From an uncultured Phycisphaeraceae bacterium (GTDB lineage: Bacteria > Planctomycetota > Phycisphaerae > Phycisphaerales > Phycisphaeraceae), in NCBI GenBank assembly GCA_937988825.1, contig CALKHT010000056.1, positions 1 through 64,000 on the forward strand: 64,000 nt of DNA, read 5' to 3'. Position numbers and translations under genes: made by a program. Each line of letters begins with the position of its first letter. Within the stretch, counting starts at the first letter, position 1. This document shows, piece after piece, positions 12,874-27,996 of this stretch. The notes below the pieces were generated by a model. It was not told the DNA's origin. It saw only the letters and a program-made list of their open reading frames with translations, and did no database searches.

Positions 12874-12941
12874 CACGTTTTCATTGCATCACGCGCCATC
12901 TCCACACGAAGCGCGGGGGACCCGGGAAACCGACAGCCGTG

Positions 12942-14144
12942 TTACTTTAGCGGGCGCATCTGCCAGATGGCGCTGTTGGGGCCATCGGGGATGAGGTAGA
13001 GGTAGCCATCCGGGCCCTGCTGGACGTCGCGGATGCGGGTTTGCAGGGGGATGCGCTCTTCCTCGACGACGCGGCCGTTCTCGATCTTCACGCGGATGAG
13101 CGCCTGCGATGACAGGCCACCGATGAACGCGCTGCCCTTCCATTCGGGGAACACATCACCGGTGTAGAACGTCATGCCCGAGGGAGAGATCACCGGCGTC
13201 CAGACGCGCACCGCATCGGTGAACTCCGGCCGGGTGTCCGGGTTGGGAATCGGCGTGCCGTCGTAGTTGATACCCCAGCTCACGACGGGCCAGCCGTAGT
13301 TTTTGCCCGCCTCCACCTTGTTCAGCTCATCACCGCCCAGTGGGCCCATCTCCACCACCCACAGGTCTCCCGTGGCGGGATCGATCGCCGCCGCCTGCAT
13401 GTTGCGATGACCCAGCGACCAGATTTCCGGCTTCGCACCGTCTCGGCCAACGAACGGGTTGTCCTTCGGCACGGAACCGTCATCGTTCAGGCGAATCACC
13501 TTGCCCAGATGGTTATTCAGGTCCTGTGCGGGCTGGAACTGAAAGCGGTCGCCGATCGTGAGGAAGATCTGATTTTTGTCGTTGAAGACGATGCGGCTGC
13601 CGTAGTGCAGACCGCGCGGCACCCAGGGCTCGTGAACGAACAGTTCCTGGAAGTTCTCGATGCGGTCGTTGACGAATCGGCCGCGACCCAGCGCGGTGGC
13701 GCTGGTGTTGTCCGGACCGGCCTTGACGTAGGAAAAGTAGACGAACTGGTTCTCGTTGAACCTGGGGTGTACCGCGACATCGAGCAGGCCACCCTGCCCC
13801 TCGACATAGATTTCCGGCAGACCGGGAATCGGGTCAGACACCTTTCCCTCTTTGTCGACGACGCGCAGCCGACCGGGTTTCTCGGTCACGAGCAGTCGGC
13901 CGTCGGGCAGGAACGCGATCCCCCAGGGTCGATCCAGCCCGGTGGCGTAGATACGCACGCTGGTCGGCCCCGCGGCGGTGAGATCGGAGCGGACCTGCCG
14001 CCCCACCTGCGCCTCAACCTGTGATGCAACCAGAACCTGCGCGAGCACGGCGGCAGCCAACATCCAGCGGCGATACAGCATGTCTGAATCCTTATTCCGG
14101 GAAGCAATACGTGCCAAACACGTGCAGATTCTATACCAGATCAC
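12942..14144 (-). CDS. PQQ-dependent soluble sugar (glucose/sorbosone) dehydrogenase, secreted
   Basis: Signal peptide (MLYRRWMLAAAVLAQVLVASQVEA) and beta-propeller SGDH-like blocks (GLDRPWGIAFLPDGRLLVTEKPGRLRVV, HLGKVIRLNDDGSVPKDNPF). Confidence 0.75.
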   Translation of the reverse strand: MIWYRICTCLARIASRNKDSDMLYRRWMLAAAVLAQVLVASQVEAQVGRQVRSDLTAAGPTSVRIYATGLDRPWGIAFLPDGRLLVTEKPGRLRVVDKEGKVSDPIPGLPEIYVEGQGGLLDVAVHPRFNENQFVYFSYVKAGPDNTSATALGRGRFVNDRIENFQELFVHEPWVPRGLHYGSRIVFNDKNQIFLTIGDRFQFQPAQDLNNHLGKVIRLNDDGSVPKDNPFVGRDGAKPEIWSLGHRNMQAAAIDPATGDLWVVEMGPLGGDELNKVEAGKNYGWPVVSWGINYDGTPIPNPDTRPEFTDAVRVWTPVISPSGMTFYTGDVFPEWKGSAFIGGLSSQALIRVKIENGRVVEEERIPLQTRIRDVQQGPDGYLYLIPDGPNSAIWQMRPLK

Positions 14145-14159
14145 CCGCGGCGATAAGGT

Positions 14160-16007
14160 TTACGCGCTCGAAACCATGTTCATGGACCGCTCCAGTGTTG
14201 CCAGCTCCGCCTTCCACGCCTGGCGGGTGGCATCATCGACGTTCGGATCGGGCAGCAGCGAGCGGCGGGTGCAATTGACCAGCGCCTGCAGCGTCTGATA
14301 CCGGCGGGTGGTGTCGATGTCGGCGGGCAGGCAGTCGCGGATCACCTCCAGCACCTGGTCGGTATCAATTTCGCCACGACACCGGGCCATCAGCAGCGAC
14401 CGCAGCGCAGCGAACGCGGCTGCGGAATAGTCAGCGGTGAGTTCATCGACCCGTGAAAGCAGCGCATCGTCCATCTCAGGCAGCACGGGTTTCAGGCACC
14501 AGCGAATGAAGGCTCTGCGGTCCTCGGAGCCGGGTTCGGGGTCGAGGACGGGAATGATGAGATCGCCCACCCGGCCGGGCCGTCGCAGGTCAGGGCTGAG
14601 CCGTTCGATGCGGGCGGTCATGAGCAGCCAGACGACGCGACCGCGCAGTTTCGGGTCGCTCATGAGCGCCTGGATCTTGCCGGTGAGGCGTCGCTCAGTG
14701 GGATGGGCGTCCGCACCGACGCCGCCGAACTGCGTGTCCGCCTCATCGACGAAGATGATGACCTTGCCCAGTGCTTCGAGTACCCGGCGAAGCTTCTCGA
14801 AGATGACATCCGTCTGCCCGAAGTACTGGCTGCGAATATTCTTGAGCACGAGCACGGGCAGCCCCAGTGCTCCGGCCACCGCTTCAAAGATGAACGTCTT
14901 GCCTGAGCCAATCGGCCCCGCCACCGCCGCACCGGGCAGAGCATCCGGACCGGTCGAACGAATGCGCGGGATGAACTCCTCCTGCAGGAACGCACGCAGG
15001 CGCGAATGGCCCACCACATCATCAAGCGTGTGACTGGGTTTCTTGAACTCGACGACATCCTCGCCCAGCGTCGCGGTGATGTGGCGTTCGACACGATCAA
15101 TCACATCGGTCGCGGTGATGGGCTTGCCGTGATGAGCAGCGCCCAGCAGCAGTTGTCGCAGCGCGTGCAGCGACAGCCCGGCCGAGAGTTGTGCCAGCTC
15201 GCGCGGCGTGATGACCATATCGACGGGACGTTGCGCGGTGAAATGCTCGATGAAGAACAGCCGCTCGTTCTCATCCGGCGGTGGCACCTCGACACTGAGC
15301 ATCTGCGGCAATGTCGCGATGCGTGGGTGAATCGCGTGGCGCGAATCCGCCAGGAGAACCACGCTGTCATCGCCTTCCATGAAGGCCGGGTCGCAGAACC
15401 AGTCCTGACAAATGGCAATGCGCTGGCGGTCCCCCGGCGAAAGGCGTGTGATGTCGCCATCAGCCGCGGGCAGCAGCATGTCCGCTGCCTCGATGAGGAT
15501 GAGCAGCCGAAAGCGCTTGCCGTTGGCCGGTTGAGCGCGCGAGCAGAGCGTAAGCTGGCGCAGCACCTCCAGCGCCGCGGTGGGTCGACCGGTCGCATCA
15601 GCGATCAGACGATCGAACTGATCCTCCAGCGATTCCCGCCGGGCACGCGCAGCCTCATCGGTGAGCGACTGCAGAATGAGCTGATCGAGCGATTGGCCTG
15701 TCTTCCAGCGAATCCACGCATCGCGCAGCACCTGCCGATCCCGATCGTGCAGGCACCGGATCGGCCCGTTCAGTTCATAAACCAGAACAATGACCCCCTC
15801 CACGGAACATCGGCTGCACAGATACGGCACCAGCGGCACATACCGCTGAGATGACTCCAGATAAAAAAGACCATGCACCTCCCCCGACAGCAAGACGGAT
15901 CGCGACTGCCCTGCATTAATGATGCGGGCCAGCCGGGAAAAAAAGTCATGTTTGGGAGGGGCAACGAGAGTCATGGTTGAAAGAAAGGCACGAAGACACG
16001 GAGGCAC
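14160..16007 (-). CDS. AAA ATPase of the classical clade (Vps4/FtsH/Cdc48-like) with a roughly 350-aa N-terminal domain of unknown function
   Basis: Walker A GPIGSGKT, Walker B IIFVDEAD, second region of homology LMTARIERLSPDLRRPGRVGDLIIPV (compare TNRPD.LDPAL.RPGRFDR). Sits directly downstream of the PspA-like gene on the same strand. Confidence 0.7.
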   Translation of the reverse strand: MPPCLRAFLSTMTLVAPPKHDFFSRLARIINAGQSRSVLLSGEVHGLFYLESSQRYVPLVPYLCSRCSVEGVIVLVYELNGPIRCLHDRDRQVLRDAWIRWKTGQSLDQLILQSLTDEAARARRESLEDQFDRLIADATGRPTAALEVLRQLTLCSRAQPANGKRFRLLILIEAADMLLPAADGDITRLSPGDRQRIAICQDWFCDPAFMEGDDSVVLLADSRHAIHPRIATLPQMLSVEVPPPDENERLFFIEHFTAQRPVDMVITPRELAQLSAGLSLHALRQLLLGAAHHGKPITATDVIDRVERHITATLGEDVVEFKKPSHTLDDVVGHSRLRAFLQEEFIPRIRSTGPDALPGAAVAGPIGSGKTFIFEAVAGALGLPVLVLKNIRSQYFGQTDVIFEKLRRVLEALGKVIIFVDEADTQFGGVGADAHPTERRLTGKIQALMSDPKLRGRVVWLLMTARIERLSPDLRRPGRVGDLIIPVLDPEPGSEDRRAFIRWCLKPVLPEMDDALLSRVDELTADYSAAAFAALRSLLMARCRGEIDTDQVLEVIRDCLPADIDTTRRYQTLQALVNCTRRSLLPDPNVDDATRQAWKAELATLERSMNMVSSA

Positions 16008-16150
16008 GAAGGAAAGGCGCAGGCAAATGAATTAGCTACCACACGGGCGACTACATCGCGCCTCTTCTGAATTACTCATTGCCAATTGCTTATTGCTTAC
16101 TGCTTATTCCATTCCCAACTGATTACTTATTACTGATTATTGATTACTCC

Positions 16151-16972
16151 TCATTCCGGCAGTCTCGGCTCACCCACCCGCGCCTCAGCATCCCGCCCGT
16201 CCGATTCCTCCGCCAGCCCGATCAGCGCATCGAACTCATCGGCGATCCGCGTTGACTGGGCATATCGAATGAACTCTGCCTCCTGCGCCCTGGTGTCGGT
16301 GCCAGCCAGTTCCTTGGACACGCGGGCCCTGGCCTTGAGTTCCTGTCGCATCTGACGCATGTCCGCCAGCTCGCGCGAGGTGCGGTCCCTGCTGATGCCC
16401 GCGAGCATGTCGTTGAGTTCCGCCTCTTCCTTGGCGGTGATCACCTCGGCGACGGCCTCGGCCTGCTCGCTGCGCAGCTTCTCGATCTCACGCAGCATCT
16501 GCGTCAACTGAATCTTGTGGCCGGCGATGGTGCTGTCCATCTCCTGCACCTCCGCCTCCAGTTCGCTGATGCGCGGTGTCTTTTCCTCGATCTTCGATCT
16601 GAAATCCTGATAGGCCAACATGCATTTGCGATAGTCCTCGCTGGCCTTGATCTGCTCCAGCGTGGCCCCATTGGCCTTCATCTGCTCGACCACCGTACGC
16701 GCTTTGGCCGCCGCCCCTTCCTTGAGCTGCTCCAGATGAGCGATCGCCTCCGATTCCGCCTTGATCTTGCTCATCTTCGCCTCGTGCTGCACGATCAGCC
16801 GGGCGATGGCGTCCTTGTACTGGCGAATCGACTCGGTCTTGCTGGCGATGATCTGATCGTACGTCGCCTTCACCACGTGCGGGCTGGTCGACAGCGCGCT
16901 GCGGGCAGCATCGATGCGGCCGGTGATCAGATAACCCAGGGCGCGAAAGTAACGGCCGACGGCTTTGAACAT
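16151..16972 (-). CDS. PspA/IM30 (Vipp1/LiaH)-family protein (ESCRT-III superfamily)
   Basis: 273 aa, coiled-coil throughout. N-terminal amphipathic MFKAVGRYFRAL resembles the PspA/Vipp1 alpha0 (MGLFDRLGRVVRANL), and heptad-rich E/A/K/Q repeats run the length of the protein. Family call from pattern only. Confidence 0.55.
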   Translation of the reverse strand: MFKAVGRYFRALGYLITGRIDAARSALSTSPHVVKATYDQIIASKTESIRQYKDAIARLIVQHEAKMSKIKAESEAIAHLEQLKEGAAAKARTVVEQMKANGATLEQIKASEDYRKCMLAYQDFRSKIEEKTPRISELEAEVQEMDSTIAGHKIQLTQMLREIEKLRSEQAEAVAEVITAKEEAELNDMLAGISRDRTSRELADMRQMRQELKARARVSKELAGTDTRAQEAEFIRYAQSTRIADEFDALIGLAEESDGRDAEARVGEPRLPE

Positions 16973-17001
16973 GCTTGGACTCCTTCGACAGCCCCCCCGC
17001 T

Positions 17002-20000
17002 TCAGGACTGATCGGCTGGATCGCCCGATTCAGGCTGGTTTTTCTCCAGACGCTGGATGATGTCATCGTACCGCGCCGCGATCGTACGCAGCGAGCGTTC
17101 CATCTCGCCCAACTGGCCCGGCTGACCGGCGACAAGACGGCTGAGCGGCTCCATCCACGCCCTCATCAGCGCGAACTGCTCCTTCATCACATACAGGAAG
17201 GTCGCGGGCACCTTGTTGATGACACGGACCTCAAAGGGAACTGCCGCATCACCGTTGCCGGGGGCACCAGTGGATGGCTTACTGACACCGGGGGCCGGTT
17301 TGTCTTCGGCGGCATTGATCGGGGCGGGTGGCAGCACGGCACCGGAACGCTGGGCGATCTGCTGCATCAGCTCGCGGATCGCGTCGAGCGTGGTGGCGTC
17401 CAGCCGCGCTTCAACCGGCGCGGTGCGTGCGGCGATATCTCGCCCGGCCGCCAACGCGGCAATCGCATCGCGGATCGCGGTGATGCTCTGCACGAAGCTG
17501 GCAAGCTGCTCCGCCACAGGGGTCAGGTCGATGCGTGGCGGTTCAACATCACGCCGGCCGTTGACCGCTTCCAGCCTTGAGAGTCCCTGCGCCAGTGCGC
17601 CGTGGATATCGCCCAGATTCTGGTTCAGTCCCGCCATCTGCGACAACACCGCCGCGGTCTTGTCGTCGCCGCCAAGGGCACGCACCGAGTTGTTGCGCAC
17701 GAACGTGCGTTTGATTTTCTCCCAGCGGGCCTTTTCTTCCTCGGTGAGCCAGCCCATCATTTCGCGGAACTTGAGCAGGTTCGCTTCCGCACCGGTGGTG
17801 AGCGTCTGGGCATCCTGCTCGTAGCTGGCCATGATGAGCGTGCGCAGTTCCTGATCATTCATCACCGGCATCACCTTCTCAGCGATGCGGTTCATATTGC
17901 GATAGGAACCCTGCAGCAGGAATGGTGGCTCGGTGCGGTACTGATCCTCCTGACCGGCGGAAGCGATGTACTGCTGATTCACGCGCAGGATCACATCGCG
18001 CACGATGATGAGCTTCTTCATCACGCTCACCATCTCTTCGATTTCCTCGCGGCTGTAGTTGCCTTCAAACTCGATGTTTTCCCGGCTGTCGGTCTCGGCA
18101 ATGCGGATGACGTTGTAGACGTCCGCCTGACTGCGCGTTGCCAACGGGTTGAGTGTCGGGTTCGATGTGAGGCAGTTCTCCAGGTACGACATCTTAAAGG
18201 CTTCGGCGTGGTCGCCGATAATGTCACCCAGGTTGTAGGTGTCCGCACGGTTGGCGAGCATGTCGGGAATCCTGAACTTCTCGCCGGATTCGGTGTATGG
18301 GTTGCCCGCCATGACGATGGCGACCTTGCGGCCGCGAAAATCGTAGGTACGCGTGCGCCCCTTGTAGACACCCTCGATCCGCCGCTGAGCATCGCAGAGG
18401 CTGATGAACTTCTGCAGGAACTCCGGGCTGGTGTGCTGGATGTCGTCGATGTAGATCATCACGTTGTCGCCCATCTCGAAGGCGAGGTTGAGCTTTTCCA
18501 GCTCCTCGCGGGCGGCGGCGTTGGTGGCCTCTGCAGGGTCGATCGACGTGACGTTGTGCCCGATCGCCGGGCCATTGATCTTCATGAAGATGACGCCCAG
18601 CCGACTGGCGATGTACTCCATGAGCGTCGTCTTGCCGTAGCCTGGCGGCGAGATAAGCAGCAGCAGCCCGTTACGATCGGTGCGCGTACCCGAGCCAGCC
18701 GTACCCATCTGCTTGGCAAGGTTGTTACCAATGAGTGACAGGAAAACTTCGTTGATGAGCCGGTTACGCACGAAGGAGGTGAGTACCTTCGGTGTGAACT
18801 CCTCGATGCGCATCTCGGCGCGGGCGCGCTCAATGATCTCGTGCTTGAGCGCGGCGTAGGCCTGGTACTTCGGCACGGTGACCCGGGCGAAGTGGTTAAG
18901 CCGGGCCATGAAGGCGTTGAAGTCGAGCGTAAGCCGTCCTTCCTGAATGGTCGGGTGCGTGCCGACGAGACCTTCGATGACCGTGCGCGTGCTGACACCG
19001 ATGATACGTGTCGGCTTGACGCCACCTTCGGCGATGCGTGCGGCCGCTTCATCCACGTAGGGTTGCGCCTCACTGCGACGCGGCTCATCCAGTGTTGCAA
19101 CGTAAGCACGCAGCCAGTCACGGATGAGGGCGAACTGCCGGCGGGGATGGCCCTCCAGCGCCTCGACCGCTTCATCGAAGGCTGAGGCCTTGCGGCGCGA
19201 TTTGAGATCCGTGTTGAACGCTTCGACGAGGTTCGCGGCATCGGGGCTGACCACGAAGGCCTGCGCCGGATTGGCAAGCTCATGGCAAAGATAGGCCGCG
19301 GCCTCCTCCGCCAATGCCGGATCGAACAGGTTGTGCGGATGCTGCTCAGCGAAGGCGGTAATGAGCGGCACCAGCTCACGCTGCACACGCTGGTCCAGTC
19401 CGTTGCCGGTGAAAAGCTCGCGTGCCTTGCCCAGGCCGATCGCGTGTGCGGCCAGCGCCTTCTTGTGCACACCATCGCTCATCACGTGCCAGAAGACCGA
19501 CGCCAGCGCACGCGCCGATGGGCTGTAGCGCAGCAGGCCGATCGTCAGTTGCATTCGCAGCAGTTCGCGCAGAATGCGGGCCGCGTCGACATCGTGCACA
19601 CCCTTGGTGTACCCCTCACTGTAGCGCGGGCTCATGAACTGGCGCACCTGCTCGACCAGTACCGATTCATCTTCGGTGAGCATCGCTTCGATCTCGGCTG
19701 GTTCTCGCGCGGCAAGTTCCTGGAACATCAGCCAGGCCAGGTACTCAGCACGATACACCGCGTGATTTTCAGAGACGATTTCCTGCGACCAGACGTCCCG
19801 TGTCGCTTCCAGACGCGCATCCTCGATCGGCTCAAAAAACTGCGTGCCGGTCAGGTGCAACTGCATCCGGTTGTCTCGGGTGATGATCGTCAGGTCGATC
19901 GGCTGCGTGTTGACAGAAAAGACGTGCCGACCGAAGCGTATCGTGTTGCGTCCGCCTTCCTGCAGTTCGATCCGATCCTTGAGCTGGCGAACCGCTTCCT

Positions 20001-22554
20001 CGCGAATGCTCTTGAGGCGTGACTGAATGTCATCGACGCGCACGGTGTCGTTCAGCGCGGCCAGCTCTTCGCAGATGTCGCGAATCTTGTCGATGAGCAT
20101 ATCGCTGGCGAAGTAGCTGTTGATCGCCACGATCTCATTCATTCCCTGCACGCGCGAGCGGATGCTGTTGAGGATGCGCGTAGCTGCCTGCCCCAGTGCG
20201 TCAGCGCGGCGGTTGCGCTTCTCCACCAGTTGCAGCTTGCGATTCTCGAACGCGTTGTAGATTTCCTCTCGCTTCTCCGTAAGCTGCAGCACGAACTCGT
20301 CAAACTCGGCGAATCGGCCTTCCAGATCCTCAAGCTGCACCATGATGCGCGTGAGGTACTGATCCACCTTCTCCGGCTCGTCAGCCAGATCAAGATAATT
20401 CGCCACCGACTGGCTCAGCAGCTTCAACTGGCTGTTGAACTCGGCAATGCCTTCGGATCGCCCCAGTTCCTGCTGTTTGTTGCGCAGACGCGAGCGCGTG
20501 GCATTGATGTGACCGAAGATTTCGGAAATGGAATCGACAATCTCGGTGCGTTTGGTCGTGTCATCAATGCGAAGGTTGCTGACGACCTCGATGAGCATTT
20601 CCAGCTCATCGGCACTCTTTTGCACCTGCTGGGCCAGTTCACGCGCTTCAGTCAGTTTGGTCAGACTGTCGATACGGGCATCGTGTTCACGGGCCGCGAG
20701 ACGATAGGGATCGAGCGATGCGGGGTCCAGCAGATGCGCCACGCAGCGTTCGGACAGACTGTCTGTCTGCCGACGCACCGCATCTTCCAGTTCATCCACG
20801 CGGGCCAGGTCGACGTAACGCAGATCGCGCAGGGCGATCACCCGCCCGCGAATCTCGCGCAGGGCGGTCATCGCCTCGACAAAGACAAGGATGTTGTCGT
20901 AGATGCGGGTCGCGTTGCGGCTGACAAGCTCCTCCACCTCACGGGCGAGTTTATCGGTCTGCCGCTGCGTGTCCCGCCGGATACGCGTGACCTTTTCGTA
21001 TTCGCCCACGGCAGCCTGCGCAGCACTGCGAATCTCGCGCAGGGGTTCGGCGAGTTTCGCCGCCTCCTCGTGATCAAGCCAGAACCAGGCGTCGAGCAGA
21101 TCGGTGGTGGTGCGAACCAGATCGAGATACAGATCCGCGTAAGGATCCTTACGGTTGATGAGTTCAAGCACCTCGACGCACTCGGCCATGGCACGCACGA
21201 CATCGCGATTGCCGATCTTGTAGAGGAACGACTTGCGATCCATGTGGCTGACATGGTCAGGGCCGACAAAAGGTGTCTGCCACACCTGCACCGCGTGATG
21301 CTTCTGCGGCTCGCCGTGCTCGGGTGCCTTGAAGAAGATGAGCCGCCCGTCACCAAAGAAGGCGTATCCGTTGCTCACCAGCGGCGTCTGCACCGTCTGC
21401 TCGATGAGGTTGTAGGCGAGGATAACGTAATCGCCCGATTCGCGGTTGTAGAAGATGTAGGCGAAGTCCTCACCATTGGGCGAGGCAATACGCCGCTCAA
21501 AGAGCAGATCATCGGGCAGATTGGGAAAGCGCTGATACTTACCTGACGCCAGGTAGTACCCATGGGCGAAAAGCAGGCCATGATCCTCCGGCAGCAGCAC
21601 GCACGCTTTGCCGATGCTGTCCTCTCGAACCACCTCCTGAAGCTTCGCGTTATAGATGAAATAGCGGTAAGCGTTCTCCTGGTACGGGCGAATCTTCAGC
21701 AGGACCAGGTGGCCCACGCGAACGAAGTAGATCTCCGCATCGTCCAGCGTCTGATCCGGGTTCTCGACCGGCTCGCTGTAGATGCCTTCACCTGTGTCGG
21801 TGCTGTCCTCCACTTTGATGGTCAGATCGCCACGGATGGTTTCGACAAATACGATGTCCTCGATCGAATAGTGCGGGTACGCGCCCTGTGTCTGCATGTC
21901 GCGCGTGGCGCGCCGCCATTCGAATTCGTGTTGCGGCGGATAGCGCACCTCATGATCAGACCGGTTGCCGCAATACTTCAGCCCGTCGCCACGTACTGCC
22001 CATTTGAACGTCTTGATGTCGGTCACATCCCGACCAACACGAAAGACCATGTAAATGTGCGGCCCATCGCGAAAGAATCTTGCGAAGATCGCATTCTTGT
22101 AAAAGCGGAACAGATCCGCGAAATCCTTGCGGAAATCGTCACTGTCCAGCAGTGACAGGTCTTCCTCGTGGAACGTGCCACCCTCCAGGCGATAGGCTGC
22201 GAACACATCGCTGATCTCCACGTTCGTCTTAAGGCCGAAGTGGACGTTGAAACCCATGAGAAATCGGCCGCCTATCTCGACGATGTCGCGCGGGATACAG
22301 TGATGCGCAGTAGTGATGCGATCACTGTCGGTGAGGGCGAAGTCGATGGAGCCGAACACCTGTTTGCGCCGCGCATTGAGCCTGTCCAGCCGTTCACGCA
22401 GATCCCGGCCGTGCGCCTCAAGGCGCCTGCGGATGACCTCGTAGGCGCCCTGATCGATCTGCGCCTCGGCGGCATGCGATGGCCCGGCCACAGACGACTG
22501 TGTCGCTGCGTCGTGAGTGACTTCTTCAGGTTGAGACGCGGTGGTTCTTGCCAT
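17002..22554 (-). CDS. Giant (1850 aa) protein with a central MoxR/AAA_5-like ATPase domain and extensive coiled-coil regions
   Basis: LLLISPPGYGKTTLMEYIASRLG (Walker A), MIYIDDIQH (Walker B), AIVMAGNPYTE...IPDMLANRADTYNL (sensor/NP motif typical of the AAA_5/MoxR/dynein-like clade). Long coiled-coil stretches span about residues 480-900. No other domain recognised by eye. Confidence 0.6.
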   Translation of the reverse strand: MARTTASQPEEVTHDAATQSSVAGPSHAAEAQIDQGAYEVIRRRLEAHGRDLRERLDRLNARRKQVFGSIDFALTDSDRITTAHHCIPRDIVEIGGRFLMGFNVHFGLKTNVEISDVFAAYRLEGGTFHEEDLSLLDSDDFRKDFADLFRFYKNAIFARFFRDGPHIYMVFRVGRDVTDIKTFKWAVRGDGLKYCGNRSDHEVRYPPQHEFEWRRATRDMQTQGAYPHYSIEDIVFVETIRGDLTIKVEDSTDTGEGIYSEPVENPDQTLDDAEIYFVRVGHLVLLKIRPYQENAYRYFIYNAKLQEVVREDSIGKACVLLPEDHGLLFAHGYYLASGKYQRFPNLPDDLLFERRIASPNGEDFAYIFYNRESGDYVILAYNLIEQTVQTPLVSNGYAFFGDGRLIFFKAPEHGEPQKHHAVQVWQTPFVGPDHVSHMDRKSFLYKIGNRDVVRAMAECVEVLELINRKDPYADLYLDLVRTTTDLLDAWFWLDHEEAAKLAEPLREIRSAAQAAVGEYEKVTRIRRDTQRQTDKLAREVEELVSRNATRIYDNILVFVEAMTALREIRGRVIALRDLRYVDLARVDELEDAVRRQTDSLSERCVAHLLDPASLDPYRLAAREHDARIDSLTKLTEARELAQQVQKSADELEMLIEVVSNLRIDDTTKRTEIVDSISEIFGHINATRSRLRNKQQELGRSEGIAEFNSQLKLLSQSVANYLDLADEPEKVDQYLTRIMVQLEDLEGRFAEFDEFVLQLTEKREEIYNAFENRKLQLVEKRNRRADALGQAATRILNSIRSRVQGMNEIVAINSYFASDMLIDKIRDICEELAALNDTVRVDDIQSRLKSIREEAVRQLKDRIELQEGGRNTIRFGRHVFSVNTQPIDLTIITRDNRMQLHLTGTQFFEPIEDARLEATRDVWSQEIVSENHAVYRAEYLAWLMFQELAAREPAEIEAMLTEDESVLVEQVRQFMSPRYSEGYTKGVHDVDAARILRELLRMQLTIGLLRYSPSARALASVFWHVMSDGVHKKALAAHAIGLGKARELFTGNGLDQRVQRELVPLITAFAEQHPHNLFDPALAEEAAAYLCHELANPAQAFVVSPDAANLVEAFNTDLKSRRKASAFDEAVEALEGHPRRQFALIRDWLRAYVATLDEPRRSEAQPYVDEAAARIAEGGVKPTRIIGVSTRTVIEGLVGTHPTIQEGRLTLDFNAFMARLNHFARVTVPKYQAYAALKHEIIERARAEMRIEEFTPKVLTSFVRNRLINEVFLSLIGNNLAKQMGTAGSGTRTDRNGLLLLISPPGYGKTTLMEYIASRLGVIFMKINGPAIGHNVTSIDPAEATNAAAREELEKLNLAFEMGDNVMIYIDDIQHTSPEFLQKFISLCDAQRRIEGVYKGRTRTYDFRGRKVAIVMAGNPYTESGEKFRIPDMLANRADTYNLGDIIGDHAEAFKMSYLENCLTSNPTLNPLATRSQADVYNVIRIAETDSRENIEFEGNYSREEIEEMVSVMKKLIIVRDVILRVNQQYIASAGQEDQYRTEPPFLLQGSYRNMNRIAEKVMPVMNDQELRTLIMASYEQDAQTLTTGAEANLLKFREMMGWLTEEEKARWEKIKRTFVRNNSVRALGGDDKTAAVLSQMAGLNQNLGDIHGALAQGLSRLEAVNGRRDVEPPRIDLTPVAEQLASFVQSITAIRDAIAALAAGRDIAARTAPVEARLDATTLDAIRELMQQIAQRSGAVLPPAPINAAEDKPAPGVSKPSTGAPGNGDAAVPFEVRVINKVPATFLYVMKEQFALMRAWMEPLSRLVAGQPGQLGEMERSLRTIAARYDDIIQRLEKNQPESGDPADQS

Positions 22555-22662
22555 CTTTGATCAGAAAAGACCGCCGGGGAACAAGCGTCGCTCCACTCGT
22601 TCATTCACGCCCGCAAGGCGGAGCGTCCGATTCCGTTACGCTCCGCCGTGACGCATGCTTCA

Positions 22663-24804
22663 TCACGCCCGCTGGCTGCCCGTGGGAATCGTCACACCGA
22701 GAGTGGTGAGCTTCTGGTCAGCGTACCCCGCCTCCCGCGACAGGCTCAGCAGCTTACGCAGCTCCGCCGTGAAGCCCTCATCCTTCGACTGCGCCAGCAC
22801 CTTGCCGATGAGTGCCGCGATCGAGAGGTTCTTCACATCCTCACTGTCGATCCCTGAATCACGGATGATGTCGGCAATGCGCTGCGGCAGCGAGCGGTCG
22901 TCGCCGTCGCCGTTTCCATTGCCGTTGAGCAGCGAGTTCGACAGGCGCGACAGGTGCTCGGAATTGTTGACGAATCGGTCAAGCTGCTTGCCGCGTGTGA
23001 TGGCGTTGAGGATGGTGTCGAAGAACACCGCCTCGCCGCCCACGATGTCGATCTTCGCCGTCTTGAGTGCCTCGGCAAGCACCTTCGCCTGCTCGGCCGC
23101 GATCTCCCGCATGACGTCGATCTGACGCAGTTCGACCTGAAGCTGCTTGTTGAGGTTGAGCTTGAATTCTTCGTGCTCCTTGCCCACACCGTCGAGCTTT
23201 TTCATCGCTTCGGCCTTGGCGGCGACACCCTCGGCTTCGGACGCATACTTCTGCCGCATGACCTCAGCTTCGGCTTCGCCCTGGGCACGAATCGCTTCGG
23301 CCTTGGCGCGCTCGCCCGCCGCCTCCGCCTCCAGCTTCTTCTGCACCACTTCCGCTTCGGCGGCACCATACTTCTGCAACGCGCTGGCCTTGGCGTGCAT
23401 CACCTCCGCTTCCGCCAGGCCGTGCGCTGCGACCTCCGCCTGCACCGCCTCGGCCAGCTTCATCTTGCCCAGCGCTTCCTTCTCTGCCGCCTGACGCCGT
23501 GCCTCGGCCTCGATGAGAATCTCGTCCGCCTCGAACTGGCTGGCCAGCTTACTCGCCTCGGCCTTCTTCACCTCGCGGACCTTGTCCTCCTCGGCCTGCG
23601 CCGTTGCAGCTGTCACCCGCACCGCCTTGGCGCGCTCGGCCGCCATGATCTCTTCCGTGTCGCGGATCTTCTGCTGTTCCTCAACCACCGCGCGCTCGAC
23701 GATGACACGCTCGCGAATCACATCCTGAATCTTCTTGCGCTCGACCTCCAGCGCCTTTTCCTTCTCGATCCGCGCCAGTTCCACCACGCGCAGACGTTCG
23801 GTCTCCTCCAGTTCCTGCTCGCGTTTGACACGCTCCAGTTCCACCGCGTCGGTGCGTTCCTTGGCGCGCTGCGCGACGAGAATCTGCCGCGCCTTGTTCT
23901 GCTCGGCAACGCCCAGTTCCTCCTCCGTGGTGATGCGGGCACGCTCCGCCTTGTAACGCTCCTCCTGCACCACCTTTTCCGCTTCGGCCTGTTCGCGGGC
24001 ACGCACGGCCGCCACCTCGCGGGCCTGCCGTGCTTCCGCCTCAGCCTGCTGACGCTCCAGCTCCAGAATCACTTCGCGCGCTTCGACATCCTGTTTCTTG
24101 ATCGTCTTTTCCTTTTCACGCAGGATGCTGTTGGCGACGATCGCTTCGCGCGCGGTCAGATCGGTGATCTTCTTGATACCTTCCGCGTCCAGGATGTTGT
24201 TCGGATCCAGCTGGTTGAGATCGGTCTGCTCGAGGTAGTCGATGGCTGCGTCATCCAGCACGTAACCGTTCAGGTCGGTACCGATGTGCTGGAGAATCTC
24301 GTTCTTGAAACGTTCGCGTTCAGTGTAAAGCTCGGTGAAGTTGAACGACTTGCCCACCGTCTTGAGCGCTTCGGAGAACTTGGCGTCGAAAAGTTCAATC
24401 AGTGCGTTGATGTCCGATGCCCGGCGGCAGCCGATCGACTGTGCGACCTGCAGTACGTCCGCCGCCACATTGTTCACGCGAACGAAGAACGCCACCTTGA
24501 TGTCCGCACGGACATTGTCCTTGCAGATCAGGCCCTCGGAGCCATGACGATAAATCTCGATCCGTTTGACCGAGATGTCCATGAACTCCTTGCGATGGAT
24601 AACGGGCACCACGATCATGCCCGAGAAGCTGACGCGGGTCTGGCCAATCCCCGTGCGCACCAGCGCTGTGCCCTGTTCCACCTTGACGTAGAACTTGGCG
24701 ATCATCGCCAACACGCCAAAGAGGATGATGAAAACGAAAATGACGGCCGTCACAATCGTCATCGTCAGGGTACCGGCCGCGAGCATTAGTGGGACACTGG
24801 TCAC
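22663..24804 (-). CDS. Flotillin-like SPFH/band-7 protein (YqiK/FloT type)
   Basis: N-terminal TM followed by an SPFH domain, then a very long EA-rich (ERQQAEAEARQAREVAAVRAREQAEAEK...) flotillin-type repeat region; 713 aa. Confidence 0.8.
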   Translation of the reverse strand: MTSVPLMLAAGTLTMTIVTAVIFVFIILFGVLAMIAKFYVKVEQGTALVRTGIGQTRVSFSGMIVVPVIHRKEFMDISVKRIEIYRHGSEGLICKDNVRADIKVAFFVRVNNVAADVLQVAQSIGCRRASDINALIELFDAKFSEALKTVGKSFNFTELYTERERFKNEILQHIGTDLNGYVLDDAAIDYLEQTDLNQLDPNNILDAEGIKKITDLTAREAIVANSILREKEKTIKKQDVEAREVILELERQQAEAEARQAREVAAVRAREQAEAEKVVQEERYKAERARITTEEELGVAEQNKARQILVAQRAKERTDAVELERVKREQELEETERLRVVELARIEKEKALEVERKKIQDVIRERVIVERAVVEEQQKIRDTEEIMAAERAKAVRVTAATAQAEEDKVREVKKAEASKLASQFEADEILIEAEARRQAAEKEALGKMKLAEAVQAEVAAHGLAEAEVMHAKASALQKYGAAEAEVVQKKLEAEAAGERAKAEAIRAQGEAEAEVMRQKYASEAEGVAAKAEAMKKLDGVGKEHEEFKLNLNKQLQVELRQIDVMREIAAEQAKVLAEALKTAKIDIVGGEAVFFDTILNAITRGKQLDRFVNNSEHLSRLSNSLLNGNGNGDGDDRSLPQRIADIIRDSGIDSEDVKNLSIAALIGKVLAQSKDEGFTAELRKLLSLSREAGYADQKLTTLGVTIPTGSQRA

Positions 24805-24871
24805 TTGGCACCTCCGGGTTGATTCAAATTCAATACAGGTTGTTCATTCACTCATGCGTGGGCGACAGTGT

Positions 24872-25576
24872 TCACGACGATTGTCCGGGTTTTGGCATCG
24901 TGTCTGACGCCTGCGGGTGATCGTGCGACGCATCCTGCCAGAAGCCGCGAACCACATACACATTCGATTTCGCGTCCTGGCCGATCACCACCGCCTCATC
25001 GCCCTTGCTGAGCATTGTGCGATCGTCGCTCGTCCTCACGTTTAATCGCAGCGGCGCACCATTGGTCGGAATCTCCACCTGACCGAGCCGATGCGTAACG
25101 GTGAGCGACACCACGGTGCCACGCCGACCGATCAGGTCCAGTTTCTGTTCCGCCTCCTCCTGTTCCTTCATCCGAGCGAAAAGCGCCTTAAGCGGCAGCG
25201 TCAAAACCTTCGTCAGCAGCAGCGAGCCGATCACCATCGGCACCAGCGCCGCCAGTTGCAGCAGCCCACCCCACTTGCCAATCAACGGGTAACTGAGCAC
25301 CCCCACCATCCAGAACGCGAGGATGAACACCGACCAGAGCACCAGCACCGGCACCGTGCCTATGTGGAAGAACCGCAGGATCGAAGCGCCAATGCCCGCT
25401 TGCAGCATGCCGTGCGGCGTGTCCGTATCCAGATCCAGATCAGTGTCCAACCCCGTATCCGCGTCGAAGTCAAAGTCGAGGCTGTCGATACCCACCGCCC
25501 CCAGGATCACGACCAGCCAGTACAAGGTCGTCAACCCCAGCAATACGGACGCGATGAGATTGAGCATGCTGCCGGT
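24872..25576 (-). CDS. NfeD/YqiJ-like membrane protein with C-terminal OB-fold (flotillin partner)
   Basis: Multi-TM N-terminal half and C-terminal ...GTVVSLTVTHRLGQVEIPTNGAPLRLNVRTSDDRTMLSKGDEAVVIGQ... OB-fold-like segment, as in YqiJ/NfeD proteins encoded upstream of flotillins. The listed ORF extends to 25690; the ATG at 25576 (MLNLIASVLL) is the more plausible start. Confidence 0.6.
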   Translation of the reverse strand, partial: TGSMLNLIASVLLGLTTLYWLVVILGAVGIDSLDFDFDADTGLDTDLDLDTDTPHGMLQAGIGASILRFFHIGTVPVLVLWSVFILAFWMVGVLSYPLIGKWGGLLQLAALVPMVIGSLLLTKVLTLPLKALFARMKEQEEAEQKLDLIGRRGTVVSLTVTHRLGQVEIPTNGAPLRLNVRTSDDRTMLSKGDEAVVIGQDAKSNVYVVRGFWQDASHDHPQASDTMPKPGQSS

Positions 25577-25941
25577 ACACGCTTCGATGAACTCCGCCAC
25601 GGCTGCACCTCCTCGACCGCGGTCCACTATAGCGGCGGGCCCATTCCCGCAGATGAGAAAATGAAGGATCGCGATCCCACTGATGCGCAAAAAAATGAAT
25701 AGCTCAAATATGCCCCCGCAAAACGACTGGCGACGACATGGCCCGAGCTATCAGCGTAGCCGAAGTTGGAACGGGATGAAAGGGGTGATCGGGGATGGCG
25801 TGGAGGGAGGGAGATGAGGATTAACAGAACCGCCGCACTGAATTTCTCCCTCTCCCCGCGGGGGAAAGGGTCAGGGTGAAGGGGCGAAGGTCCACCGGCG
25901 CCAATCCCAGCGACGCTGTCCGAACACCGCTGCGCCGTACG

Positions 25942-27996
25942 CTACTTATGCCCCAGCACCGCCACGCCGTCCCACATGCGCGGCGGAGCATCGATGTACT
26001 GGCGGCAGCGGGCTGCCAGGGTCGCCGACGCCGGGTCGCCGTATCGTTTGACCAGCGCCTCAAACCGTGCCGCTGCCTCGGTGAAATGGCCCTCAAAGTA
26101 GATCGCCAGTGCCCGCTCGTATGCGTCGCGCAGGAGCAGCAACCGTTCATCAACCTCGCCCGACACACCCAGTAGCTCGAACACATCCGTCGGATGTGCC
26201 CTGCCTTTGACGACCACGCGGTCGAGCTGCCGCCAGTGGAACTGATCACCTGTGCTTTGCTGAACCGCATCGGACGCCAGCAGGTGCGTGCCATACACCT
26301 TGTTGAGCGATTCGAGGCGGCTGGTGAGATTGACGCCGTCGCCCATCGCAGTGTAGGTCAGATGATCAGCAGTGCCGACGTTTCCCACGACAACGCGGTC
26401 AGTGTGTAGACCGATGCGCTGCTCCAGCAGGATACGGCCATCGCGCTGGCGTTGCTCGTTGACCTCGCGCAGACGTCGCTGCGAATCGAGTGCCGCCCGA
26501 CATGCCGCAGCGGAATGGTCCGGCACCGGCAGCGGCGCGTTGAAGAAGGCGAAGATGCCATCGCCGACGAACTGCACCAGCGTACCCTTGTGCCGCGCCA
26601 GCGCATCGGCGGTTGTTTCAAAGTAGGCGGACAAATCCTCCACGACACGATCAGGTGTGCGCGACTCGCTGTGCCAGGTGAAGTTCGCCAGATCGCTGAA
26701 CATCATTGTGACCTCGCGCACCTGTCCGCCGAGCTTCGCTTCCTCACCGTTGGCGAGCAGCGACCTCACAAGCTCGGCCGGCACATAACGTGAGAAAGAC
26801 CTTAGTCCCGCCTTCATGCGTTCCGCCGCAGCAATAACGGTGGTTACCTCGGCAATGCGTGAGGGTTGCATCGCCTCGCCGGTCAAATCGAACCGGCCGA
26901 TGCGATCCAGCTCCTGTGACACCTCGCGCAGCGGTCGGGTCATGCGCTGCGTGAAGCGATAGCCCAGCACAATCGCGGTGAGCACCGCCAGTGCGCCAAT
27001 GCTCGACGCCCAGATGGCGTTGTAGCGGGCGACATGCAGGTACTCATCGGTCGGCACAAGCACGGCGAGCATGATCTGTCCGCCACCACCGAGACTGATG
27101 TGGTCGACCAGCGTGGCATACGCCTGCCCACCGAACGATAACACCCGGCGGTGCGTACCGTTATCTTCCATCACTGCGGCCCGCAGTTCTGCCGGGGTGG
27201 GCACGGTCACATCATCCTGCGGTGCGGTGCCGGCAATGAGCTGGCCTTGTGGCGAGAGAATGAAAATGCTGCCGGCTGAATCACCGCGCGTTTCTTCAAG
27301 AAAATGTTGCAGGGCCGTGACGGTCAGGTCGATCGTCAGCACACCGCGCAGCTCGCCATCCTTCGTGTAGATGGGCAGGCTTGTGGTGATCCCGCGTTCC
27401 TCGACGCCATAAAAGGTGTAAGGTTCGCTCCACGCGATGCCGCGGGCCCGCACCGCGTCCTGATACCAGGGACGATTGCGTGGATCGAAGTCTGGCGGCC
27501 CGGGGCCGTCGTAAACCAGTTGGCCATCACGCATGAGATAGTCGTACGCTTCGGGACCATCGTCCGCGACGGAGTAGTTGACGATGATCTCACCATCGGG
27601 CCGACGATTCGCCCCCACGAAAAGGCCATCCGATTCCTGTCCGTAGGAAACCCACTCCAGCCCCTCATCGGTGGCGATCACCCGCGCCAGTGCCATACCC
27701 ACCGCCTGCCAGTCCAGCGGCGGCGTCAGCAACAGTTCCTGATGGCCAGCCAGATAAAGCAGCACCGATTCAGCGCTGCGAATGCGGGCATCCACCTTGT
27801 GTCGCACCGATGTGGCTGTGCTGGCCAGATATCGATTGCTCAGATCCTCCACCGACTGGCGGGTGGATATGTACGCCACCGTCGCAACAACCAGCACCGT
27901 ACCGAGCAGTGTGCTCAGCAGGAGCATCAGCACCGCCGTGCGCAGACGAAACGTCATGCGCTCGCGCGATTGAAACTTGTTCCGACGTCGCGGCAT
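25942..27996 (-). CDS. Class III adenylate/guanylate cyclase with periplasmic Cache-like sensor and TM/HAMP region
   Basis: N-terminal TM, a large periplasmic domain, a second TM, then the CHD catalytic core (TMMFSDLANFT...LVQFVGDGIFAFFNAP...GLHTDRVVVGNVGT...YTAMGDGVNLTSRLE), followed by a C-terminal helical region. Confidence 0.8.
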   Translation of the reverse strand: MPRRRNKFQSRERMTFRLRTAVLMLLLSTLLGTVLVVATVAYISTRQSVEDLSNRYLASTATSVRHKVDARIRSAESVLLYLAGHQELLLTPPLDWQAVGMALARVIATDEGLEWVSYGQESDGLFVGANRRPDGEIIVNYSVADDGPEAYDYLMRDGQLVYDGPGPPDFDPRNRPWYQDAVRARGIAWSEPYTFYGVEERGITTSLPIYTKDGELRGVLTIDLTVTALQHFLEETRGDSAGSIFILSPQGQLIAGTAPQDDVTVPTPAELRAAVMEDNGTHRRVLSFGGQAYATLVDHISLGGGGQIMLAVLVPTDEYLHVARYNAIWASSIGALAVLTAIVLGYRFTQRMTRPLREVSQELDRIGRFDLTGEAMQPSRIAEVTTVIAAAERMKAGLRSFSRYVPAELVRSLLANGEEAKLGGQVREVTMMFSDLANFTWHSESRTPDRVVEDLSAYFETTADALARHKGTLVQFVGDGIFAFFNAPLPVPDHSAAACRAALDSQRRLREVNEQRQRDGRILLEQRIGLHTDRVVVGNVGTADHLTYTAMGDGVNLTSRLESLNKVYGTHLLASDAVQQSTGDQFHWRQLDRVVVKGRAHPTDVFELLGVSGEVDERLLLLRDAYERALAIYFEGHFTEAAARFEALVKRYGDPASATLAARCRQYIDAPPRMWDGVAVLGHK

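Follow-up and report, generated by a model that had tools for sequence, protein, structure and literature searches.

A five-gene block of Phycisphaerae joining a flotillin-giant ATPase triad to a PspA-like protein and a tandem AAA ATPase: a candidate membrane maintenance system

The locus and the question

Why should genes for a flotillin-like protein, an ATPase of 1850 amino acids (aa), a relative of the PspA/IM30 proteins and a tandem AAA ATPase stand in one row, and what might their products do together? The question is raised by a 64,000-nucleotide stretch of DNA, the window of this analysis, from an uncultured Phycisphaeraceae bacterium (assembly GCA_937988825.1, contig CALKHT010000056.1, positions 1 to 64,000). 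The open reading frame (ORF) listing of the window contains five consecutive co-directional minus-strand ORFs that are separated, counting from the NfeD/YqiJ-like gene, by 67, 108, 29 and 143 bp:

24872..25690, minus strand: NfeD/YqiJ-like membrane protein (272 aa as listed, probably 231 aa; match to YqiJ_N)
22663..24804, minus strand: flotillin-like SPFH protein, 713 aa (N-terminal transmembrane anchor, SPFH-like region, long Glu/Ala-rich helical region)
17002..22554, minus strand: giant soluble ATPase, 1850 aa (DUF3686, DUF7902 and AAA+; NCBI name "DNA repair ATPase")
16151..16972, minus strand: divergent PspA/IM30-like protein of, very probably, the ESCRT-III superfamily, 273 aa (profile, fold and orthologue evidence)
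14160..16007, minus strand: tandem classical AAA ATPase (probable start 15974, 604 aa; degenerate D1 domain and D2 domain with intact motifs)

This is the minus-strand cluster with short gaps that had been described in the initial annotation of the window, and its coordinates agree with the ORF listing; the gaps given there (68, 109, 30 and 144 bp) differ by 1 bp each owing to a counting convention. Two of the listed starts are probably too far upstream. A database copy of the AAA protein, 100% identical and 604 aa long, starts with MTLVAPPK, that is, at the ATG at 15974, which widens the gap between the PspA-like and AAA genes to 176 bp; the alignments of the NfeD/YqiJ-like orthologues start near M42, the ATG at 25567, which yields a protein of 231 aa. 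The reading that we favor, with a confidence modestly above even, is that this operon-like block encodes an inner-membrane maintenance or remodelling system composed of two joined modules.

Conservation of the block and of its two parts

The same five genes in the same order are present in five other contigs (L001 and, identified in targeted look-ups, L086, L170, L171 and L172), in which the giant ATPases are 54-78% identical to that of the window, the values for the latter four reaching down to 54-57%. The flanks of the block are unrelated at every locus and include FHA-VWA genes, an SMC-like gene with an RND pump, ribosomal protein genes and, in the window, genes for a glucose/sorbosone dehydrogenase (GSDH) and a dCache-cyclase. 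Because the order is shared by six contigs with different flanks, the block is more than a chance juxtaposition, a possibility that the initial annotation had left to a gene-neighbourhood search.

The first three genes are the most broadly conserved part. Among 62 species-representative loci of the giant gene with enough upstream DNA, which come from at least seven phyla, 59 have the flotillin gene immediately before the giant gene, and in 52 the NfeD and flotillin genes both precede it directly and co-directionally; the YqiJ/NfeD-flotillin-giant triad is the conserved core of the block. The PspA-like and AAA genes follow the giant gene in only one (L001) of 80 giant loci.

The context of the PspA-like family was analyzed in 80 metagenomic loci. 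The usual arrangement consists of genes for a VWA protein, an OmpA-domain protein, a ~248-aa protein with two transmembrane (TM) segments, the PspA-like protein, a lipoprotein solute-binding protein (SBP), a permease, an ABC ATPase and the tandem AAA ATPase; this eight-gene transporter operon is the ancestral home of the PspA-like/AAA pair of the window. Where at least 6 kb of downstream sequence was available, the tandem AAA gene was found in 17 of 20 loci, beyond the transporter genes in 14 and directly adjacent in three; the ~248-aa TM protein is encoded upstream of the PspA-like protein in 52 of 57 loci, and the giant ATPase in none of the 22 metagenomic loci whose upstream sequence spans 6 kb or more. 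The PspA-like protein and the tandem AAA ATPase form a conserved pair, and this pair joins the flotillin triad in a narrow clade only. The AAA proteins of the six blocks fall together in one clade of a midpoint-rooted neighbour-joining tree that has no bootstrap support, and this clade groups with some of the AAA proteins from transporter operons. This single clade suggests that a lineage of Phycisphaerae took up the pair downstream of the flotillin triad in one capture. Elsewhere in the window, searches for the ABC, SBP and ~248-aa TM protein genes returned generic ABC matches only.

The eight-gene operon was seen in Planctomycetota at L087:755-9929, L088, L089 and many of the loci L093-L169. 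At L082-L085 and L091-L092, the PspA-like gene is accompanied only by an upstream gene for a ~250-aa protein with two TM segments, and Y1 transposase genes located just downstream suggest that the operon has been broken by insertions.

PspA proteins of other types also adjoin the triad. In 13 Bacteroidota loci, genes for an XRE-S24 regulator (on the opposite strand), a CesT_Tir_1 protein (4e-54) and a canonical PspA_IM30 protein (4e-41) immediately precede the triad, and in a 14th locus of this phylum (L029) the PspA gene is downstream of the triad on the opposite strand. Two metagenome-assembled genomes (MAGs) of Phycisphaerae (L013 and L071) carry, right after the giant gene, a canonical-type PspA gene (2e-13) that is missed by the hidden Markov model of the window family; on the megaplasmid pQBR103, a module of PspA and polyamine genes lies upstream of the triad. 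PspA therefore adjoins the triad in four contexts, with three PspA types involved (the canonical YjfJ type, the L013/L071 type and the divergent subfamily of the window), which implies at least three independent associations. These independent associations are the strongest argument for a functional link between PspA and the triad.

The plasmid locus (L173) is located at NC_009444.1 85112-97641 in pQBR103 of P. fluorescens SBW25, a genetically tractable host, and fuses a polyamine-type PspA operon to the triad: the run comprises PspA, rhomboid, DUF2491, DUF350, DUF1190, glutathionylspermidine synthase, YqiJ-like, SPFH and "DNA repair ATPase" genes. Proteus mirabilis and Vibrio campbellii are further carriers of the triad.

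The same neighbourhoods could also be taken to mean that two independent units happen to be adjacent, with the triad functioning alone and the PspA-like/AAA genes being a relocated fragment of an ABC operon whose partners are encoded elsewhere. The usual home of the pair in the VWA-OmpA-TM248-PspA-like-SBP-permease-ABC-AAA operon, the lack of a giant gene in the 22 loci mentioned above, and the finding that most triads in other phyla have neither PspA nor AAA within 10 kb are all compatible with this possibility. The same can be said of L081, a close relative with a block lacking the AAA gene, in which the PspA-like gene follows the giant gene and the AAA gene is in an ABC operon elsewhere in the genome, so that the AAA ATPase is not obligatorily tied to the triad, and of the PspA-like/AAA spacer of 143-176 bp in the window, which would permit separate transcription. 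Yet the order of the five genes is retained at giant ATPase identities as low as 54% while the flanks turn over completely, the giant and PspA-like genes of the window are only 29 bp apart, a mere 3 bp separate the PspA-like gene from the AAA gene in L170, and three types of PspA adjoin the triad in four contexts. We consider two independent units unlikely.

The PspA-like protein and the tandem AAA ATPase

The following features of the PspA-like protein were mapped:

16271-16312, minus strand: ELAGTD motif
16208-16240, minus strand: family-specific C-terminal motif DEFDxLIGLA
16154-16165, minus strand: terminal RLPE

The family to which this protein belongs has ~970 members, several of which are named PspA by NCBI or JGI, and the PspA/IM30 profile PF04012 was matched at E<=0.01 in 11 of 24 members that are 52-82% identical to the window protein (best 9.8e-7). 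When the family profile was compared to PDB, the top four matches were Vipp1/PspA structures (E=0.014-0.018), aligned co-linearly with the ELAG(T/A)D motif included. The AlphaFold2 (AF2) model has a mean pLDDT (predicted local distance difference test score) of 78, with values above 90 over residues 31-170, and contains helices at residues 3-16, 31-100 and 112-241; the top Foldseek match of this model is Vipp1 (6zvr, E=0.0095, 252 columns). Each of these lines of evidence is weak but they converge, and the membership of the protein in the PspA superfamily appears highly probable. Its strongest hydrophobic moment (0.58) falls on residues 1-18, an amphipathic helix. The C-terminus (residues 245-273, 16154-16240) consists of an invariant (D/S/N)EFDxLIGLA motif, a variable acidic linker and a terminal (K/R)LPE; the co-conserved tandem AAA ATPase may use this tail for docking or recognition.

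The motifs of the D2 domain of the AAA protein are as follows:

14895-14918, minus strand: Walker A, GPIGSGKT
14811-14828, minus strand: pore loop, QYFGQT
14736-14759, minus strand: Walker B, IIFVDEAD
14571-14585, minus strand: Arg fingers, RRPGR

These four motifs are invariant in 17 homologues. The D1 domain lacks the Lys and Thr of Walker A as well as the catalytic Glu, with IEAAD in place of the hhhhDE of Walker B; the two domains remain recognizably related (hhalign probability 88.6%, E=2.6e-6). The protein matches Pfam PF00004 with E=1e-15, and its best PDB matches are VAT, p97 and AFG2 (1e-22 to 5e-27; VAT profile, 5.5e-27). The AF2 model (pLDDT 84.5) aligns in Foldseek over 600-650 columns to the D1-D2 portions of p97, Rix7, AFG2 and NVL (E of 2e-18 to 3e-16, TM-score ~0.5). 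The product of gene 5 is predicted from its motifs and model to be a Cdc48/p97-like tandem AAA ATPase with a degenerate D1 and an active D2. The classical-clade AAA protein of the initial annotation is, then, correctly placed by PF00004 and by its D2, although it is a tandem protein with a dead D1 rather than a simple single-domain AAA ATPase. The N-terminal double-psi barrel of the Cdc48 type is absent, the model opening with the degenerate AAA domain and its first strand at residue 25, and no MIT domain was detected by Pfam, in the AF2 model or with Foldseek. Membership in the Vps4 family was rejected on account of this lack of MIT, the presence of two AAA domains, and NCBIfam scores in which CDC48 (9.5e-16) outranks CdvC (1.8e-7); by analogy, the tandem AAA ATPase may nevertheless work like Vps4 while being outside its family.

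The giant ATPase

The domains and motifs of the giant ATPase are located as follows:

21082..22404, minus strand: DUF3686 domain (residues 51-491; Pfam PF12458, E=2e-182, profile positions 1-448/448)
20467..20718, minus strand: DUF7902 domain (residues 613-696; Pfam PF25472, E=8.5e-24)
18289..18663, minus strand: AAA+ core (residues 1298-1422; Pfam AAA_5, AAA and AAA_22, and motifs)
18628-18651, minus strand: Walker A, SPPGYGKT
18433-18456, minus strand: Walker B, IYIDDIQH
18289-18315, minus strand: sensor-1, VMAGNPYTE

More than 3600 homologues of this protein were found, the full-length ones sharing the same Pfam set. The identity is ~50% in Planctomycetota, Bacteroidota, Verrucomicrobiota, Desulfobacterota, Clostridia, Kiritimatiellota and Omnitrophota, and ~40% in Proteobacteria, Actinobacteria and Deinococcus. 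No TM segment was predicted in the giant ATPase, which points to a soluble protein. The region of residues ~500-900 is helical and coiled-coil-like, low in Pro and Gly and rich in Glu, Lys, Arg, Gln, Asp, Ala and Leu. The DUF3686 region is rich in aromatic and beta-branched residues and has been described as a beta-propeller (Ravi et al. 2024, PMC11237479); profile self-comparison revealed no internal repeats or propeller blades in it, a result that neither supports nor excludes a propeller.

The AAA+ core scores similarly against AAA_5 (8.2e-7), AAA (1.1e-6) and AAA_22 (3e-6), its hhalign probability against the D2 domain of the tandem AAA ATPase is 38%, and the similarity of the family profile to PDB structures (p97, RuvB) is confined to the P-loop region. 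The initial annotation had depicted a coiled-coil protein with a MoxR/AAA_5 core; the coiled-coil-like region is borne out, but the MoxR/AAA_5 identity was rejected, AAA_5 being no better than generic AAA and the PDB match covering the P-loop only. No VWA gene is present in the five-gene block. In 69 of the 72 orthologues, which come from many phyla, the Walker B motif reads hYhDDIQH; Asp thus occupies the usual position of the catalytic Glu, and this replacement suggests a slow or switch-like ATPase. The loop at the pore-loop position, PAIGHNVTS, contains no aromatic residue.

The C-terminal ~190 residues (~1665-1850, 17002-17560) include conserved positions such as P1783, W1800 and Y1829 and can be aligned in the majority of the Planctomycetota-labelled orthologues as well as in two Desulfobacterales-labelled MAGs; the giant proteins of Bacteroidota, Verrucomicrobiota and Clostridia stop near residue 1655.

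Taken at face value, the database name would make the giant protein an ATPase that acts in DNA repair. This is what the NCBI and Pfam labels say ("DNA repair ATPase", "ATPase involved in DNA repair"), and weak RuvB_N matches can be cited in its favor. These matches, however, are restricted to the P-loop region, no nuclease or DNA-binding domain was found, and the giant gene is near-invariably located beside the genes of two membrane proteins and repeatedly beside PspA; our literature search recovered no paper naming DUF3686 and no experimental basis for the label. Given the P-loop-only matches and the constant membrane-protein neighbours, we rejected the label and consider a role in DNA repair exceedingly improbable: the giant family is misnamed.

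A role in anti-phage defence or another biological conflict, with the system sensing infection and then disrupting or protecting the membrane by abortive infection or a membrane-targeting effector, is very unlikely as well. It would fit the large size and many domains of the NTPase, whose coiled-coil and putative beta-propeller regions resemble sensors, the XRE-S24 regulator and sometimes a PLD-family gene accompanying the Bacteroidota versions, the variable flanks, and the copy on the megaplasmid pQBR103. However, there was no significant match in PADLOC, the best being LmuB, an SMC-like coiled coil that matches residues 496-895 of the giant ATPase (E=8e-6) as coiled-coil noise, and the P-loop of IetA. 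Furthermore, no matches were found in 50,697 phage records, and only 13 of the 72,556 plasmid records matched, the majority of them being chromids or chromosomes. Identity of ~50% across phyla combined with stable synteny is atypical of fast-evolving defence genes, and the neighbours include housekeeping genes (ribosomal proteins, enolase, SMC).

The two membrane-anchored proteins

Among the five proteins, TM anchors are found only in the NfeD/YqiJ-like and flotillin-like ones. The flotillin-like protein has a single TM segment (residues 17-35) and, as read from its translation, a Glu/Ala-rich helical stretch at residues ~230-560. In NCBIfam, it matches FloT at E=0.0086 only. Band_7 was matched in 3 of 24 full-length orthologues that are 38-87% identical to it (best 7.8e-13), the orthologue encoded by pQBR103 bears the RefSeq name "SPFH domain-containing protein", and the orthologue profile matches QmcA in PDB (8e-4; 8z5g, an entry with 26 chains) over the helical region. 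Single-sequence PDB searches with the flotillin-like and PspA-like proteins yielded coiled-coil noise or nothing.

The NfeD/YqiJ-like protein contains three TM segments (residues 45-63, 115-133 and 146-164) and, with the short start, reaches the cut-off of Pfam YqiJ_N (PF21001; 23.1 bits against 23, E=8.7e-5); the long ORF scores 22.9 bits (E=1e-4), and YqiJ_N was matched in 8 of 20 orthologues. The C-terminus is beta-rich and OB-like, with a conserved G..GQ..G pattern, as judged by eye only. The proposal of an NfeD/YqiJ-like OB-fold protein in the initial annotation is thus supported for its membrane portion, whereas for the OB domain the NfeD profile (PF01957) was matched in 1 of 20 orthologues (E=0.0049) and not in the window protein.

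The combination of an SPFH protein with AAA+ ATPases also brings to mind quality control of the HflK/C-FtsH kind, in which a flotillin cage would corral clients, the giant and/or tandem AAA ATPases would extract or unfold them, and PspA would seal the membrane. The tight linkage of the SPFH gene to AAA+ genes, the threading-type YFG pore loop of D2 within a p97-like architecture, and the cages formed by SPFH proteins according to the review literature, together with the QmcA profile match, speak for such a mechanism. Against it, a Pfam scan found no protease domain in the block, the PAIGHNVTS loop of the giant ATPase has no aromatic residue and its Walker B no catalytic Glu, and the close co-conservation of the PspA-like and AAA genes points to PspA or the Snf7-like protein as the client; this type of quality control is, in our estimate, quite unlikely.

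Proposed function of the block

From the gene content, conservation and linkage of the block and the status of folds and motifs, all of which the analysis shows, we infer the interactions of its products and a physiological role that is probably in envelope stress or membrane remodelling. Under the proposed inner-membrane maintenance or remodelling system, the first module, widespread in bacteria, would comprise the three-TM YqiJ/NfeD-like protein, the TM-anchored flotillin-like SPFH scaffold and the soluble giant ATPase, and the second, the divergent PspA, a bacterial ESCRT-III protein, and the Cdc48/p97-like tandem AAA ATPase. At the inner membrane, on its cytoplasmic side, the flotillin/NfeD pair would assemble into a microdomain or cup and recruit the PspA-like protein, which might bind stressed membrane by its N-terminal amphipathic helix and polymerise there, in parallel with YdjI and PspA of B. 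subtilis. A hexamer of the tandem AAA ATPase could then grip the C-terminal tail of PspA (EFDxLIGLA...(K/R)LPE) and thread or unfold the subunits via the D2 pore; by disassembling and recycling the polymer in this manner, it would do for PspA what Vps4 does for ESCRT-III polymers. The giant ATPase, with Asp substituted for the catalytic Glu, may act slowly and in a nucleotide-dependent manner on the flotillin coat, as a factor for its assembly, tethering or remodelling. The initial annotation had suggested a membrane scaffolding/repair or vesiculation machine; scaffolding and repair remain the most reasonable reading, and vesiculation is speculative.

Several observations weigh against the proposed system, in addition to the arrangement in L081 and the length of the PspA-like/AAA spacer. 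Against PF04012, the PspA-like protein of the window has E=0.51 and fails the Pfam threshold, and the flotillin-like protein has no Pfam match even at E<=10; in the profile searches called for by the initial annotation, YqiJ_N, AAA and AAA_5 were found in the window proteins themselves, but PspA_IM30 and Band_7 in orthologues only, so that the PspA/IM30 and flotillin (SPFH) calls hold at the superfamily level, through relatives, profiles and the fold match to Vipp1, and not for the two window sequences taken singly. The hhalign comparison of the PspA-like family with canonical PspA is weak (probability 1.7%, E=0.028), and SMC, F-BAR and other coiled coils score near Vipp1 against the PspA-like model, helical hairpins being structurally non-specific. 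The giant ATPase is unassignable to an AAA+ clade, given that its resemblance to PDB structures is limited to the P-loop, and the same uncertainty extends to its N-terminal fold. In most loci, a transporter component or the Snf7-like TM protein is as plausible a client of the AAA ATPase as PspA.

Planctomycetes are known for elaborate membrane invaginations. A further-reaching idea, rather doubtful in our view, is that the block encodes a complete bacterial ESCRT-like cycle that is independent of Vps4, with the flotillin/NfeD/giant proteins forming a patch, PspA constricting or sealing the membrane, and the Cdc48-derived AAA ATPase recycling the polymer. If this were true, planctomycetes would possess an ATP-driven machine for membrane scission, vesiculation or repair, and the tandem AAA ATPase, one of its two rings decayed, would illustrate in a living organism the path that has been proposed to lead from Cdc48 to Vps4. 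Where the disassembly of PspA/Vipp1 polymers in bacteria is concerned, this locus sets a PspA-family gene beside a threading-competent p97-like AAA ATPase and beside a flotillin/NfeD scaffold that has a giant ATPase of its own. The compact five-gene system is a candidate for testing a PspA-recycling AAA ATPase coupled to flotillin microdomains and is suited to reconstitution. The locus also draws attention to the giant family, very widespread, 1600-1900 aa long and ~50% identical across phyla, for which no experimental study was found in the literature searched.

Spacers and flanking genes

The G+C content is even across the window, at ~0.59-0.65, and the base composition shows no island signature. 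A promoter and terminator scan returned no promoters, and terminator-like sites at the background level. One spacer within the block has a distinctive structure:

22555..22662, minus strand: flotillin-giant spacer, with a GC-rich hairpin directly 3' of the flotillin stop codon

The RNA minimum free energy of this hairpin is -46.5 kcal/mol (z=-2.48 relative to shuffled sequences), and its possible roles are partial termination or stabilisation of the mRNA, by which flotillin would be kept high relative to the giant ATPase. The equivalent spacers L001:9880-10000 and L086:3441-3549 also contain GC-rich inverted repeats, with sequences different from that of the window. A second spacer, which separates the PspA-like gene from the AAA gene (15975-16150), is strikingly AT-rich against the 62% GC of the genome and is made of repeated AGTAAT, AAGCAAT and AATCAG words; this spacer is not conserved in L001, L086 or L171.

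Two co-directional minus-strand genes flank the block, namely, the GSDH gene (8.8e-135) at 12942-14144, 15 bp past the AAA stop codon, and a gene for a dCache and adenylate/guanylate cyclase sensor at 25942-27996, which on its upstream side is 251 bp away from the NfeD ORF as listed. Both were rejected as block members; the dCache-cyclase gene is not conserved at the other five-gene loci, and GSDH is probably no part of the system because it, too, is missing from the conserved order there. In L086, from a 3.9-Mb relative, the block is followed by a co-directional gene for a 1002-aa FHA, YscD-like and VWA_3 protein (12223-15231).

Comparison with known systems

In HflK/C-FtsH, an SPFH cage encloses an AAA+ machine, and SPFH proteins are paired with NfeD-type partners in YqiJK, YuaF-FloT and QmcA-YbbJ. 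The block of the window resembles these systems in that its SPFH protein has a neighbouring partner of the NfeD/YqiJ type and is predicted to be functionally coupled to an AAA+ protein. It differs in its giant ATPase, a soluble protein that lacks a protease domain, is of no assignable AAA+ clade and carries a DD Walker B.

A link between PspA and SPFH proteins is known in B. subtilis. Scholz et al. 2021 (PMC8581546) report that PspA requires an SPFH-domain protein for its localisation or linkage to the membrane, Makarova et al. name this protein as YdjI, and Popp et al. proposed a PspA-YdjI interaction from two-hybrid data. The ydjFGHI operon and the block share the genetic linkage of PspA to an SPFH protein, and for B. 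subtilis, SPFH-dependent recruitment of PspA to the membrane is reported from experiment. The window has no YdjG or YdjH, whereas the B. subtilis operon has no AAA+ genes.

With ESCRT-III/Vps4, the block shares the adjacency of a gene of the PspA/ESCRT-III superfamily and one for a classical AAA ATPase with an aromatic pore loop, along with a predicted common logic, polymerisation on the membrane and disassembly by the ATPase. Unlike Vps4, the tandem AAA ATPase has no MIT domain, contains two AAA domains, the first of which is dead, and is closest to VAT, p97 and AFG2; genes similar to ESCRT-I/II are lacking from the block. Archaeal ESCRT loci have been linked to SPFH proteins and a ProX-like solute-binding protein in the review literature, and according to recent reviews, which also report ESCRT-SPFH links and the Cdc48 origin of Vps4, bacteria have no Vps4-like partner.

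The closest precedents are the two modules described by Ravi et al. 2024 (mSystems, PMC11237479), who proposed ATP-dependent membrane remodelling for both from comparative genomics. The first is an operon encoding a cHTH+protease protein, CesT_Tir, PspA, YqiJ/YuaF, a Band-7+coiled-coil+flotillin protein and a beta-propeller+coiled-coil+AAA protein, with abbreviated forms also noted (example, Dokdonia ANH61663.1). The window shares with it the YqiJ-like protein, the TM flotillin and the giant AAA+ protein in identical order, and differs by the divergent PspA subfamily, located downstream rather than upstream of the giant gene, by the lack of CesT/Tir and the XRE-S24 regulator, and by the addition of the tandem AAA ATPase. 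The Bacteroidota operon was recovered here in 13 loci, and the abbreviated triad is the form present in most other phyla. The second module, described separately, combines PspA and a protein of the architecture "inactive classical AAA + classical AAA" (Clostridium AEY64320/1, Handelsmanbacteria OGG56892.1), usually in a transporter operon, the long form of which adds ABC transporter, PBPB/OmpA and TM-Snf7 genes. The architecture of a degenerate D1 and an active D2 and the adjacent PspA-family gene are the same in the window, and the closest AAA relatives outside the five-gene clade come from eight-gene operons with the gene content of the published example; this likeness to the published accessions is one of architecture and gene content. 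The window clade differs in having lost the transporter, OmpA and TM-Snf7 neighbours and in being attached to the triad.

The initial annotation had regarded the arrangement as one not known to be characterised. This is accurate with regard to experiment, no work on the giant or tandem AAA ATPases having been found in the literature searched, but not with regard to comparative genomics: as both halves have been described bioinformatically, the block is a clade-restricted variant of an already catalogued system, and only the joining of the two modules, itself confined to one clade, is new. This fusion provides independent genomic evidence that the two modules of Ravi et al. act in one pathway, and it indicates PspA, more than the transporter, as the partner of the AAA ATPase.

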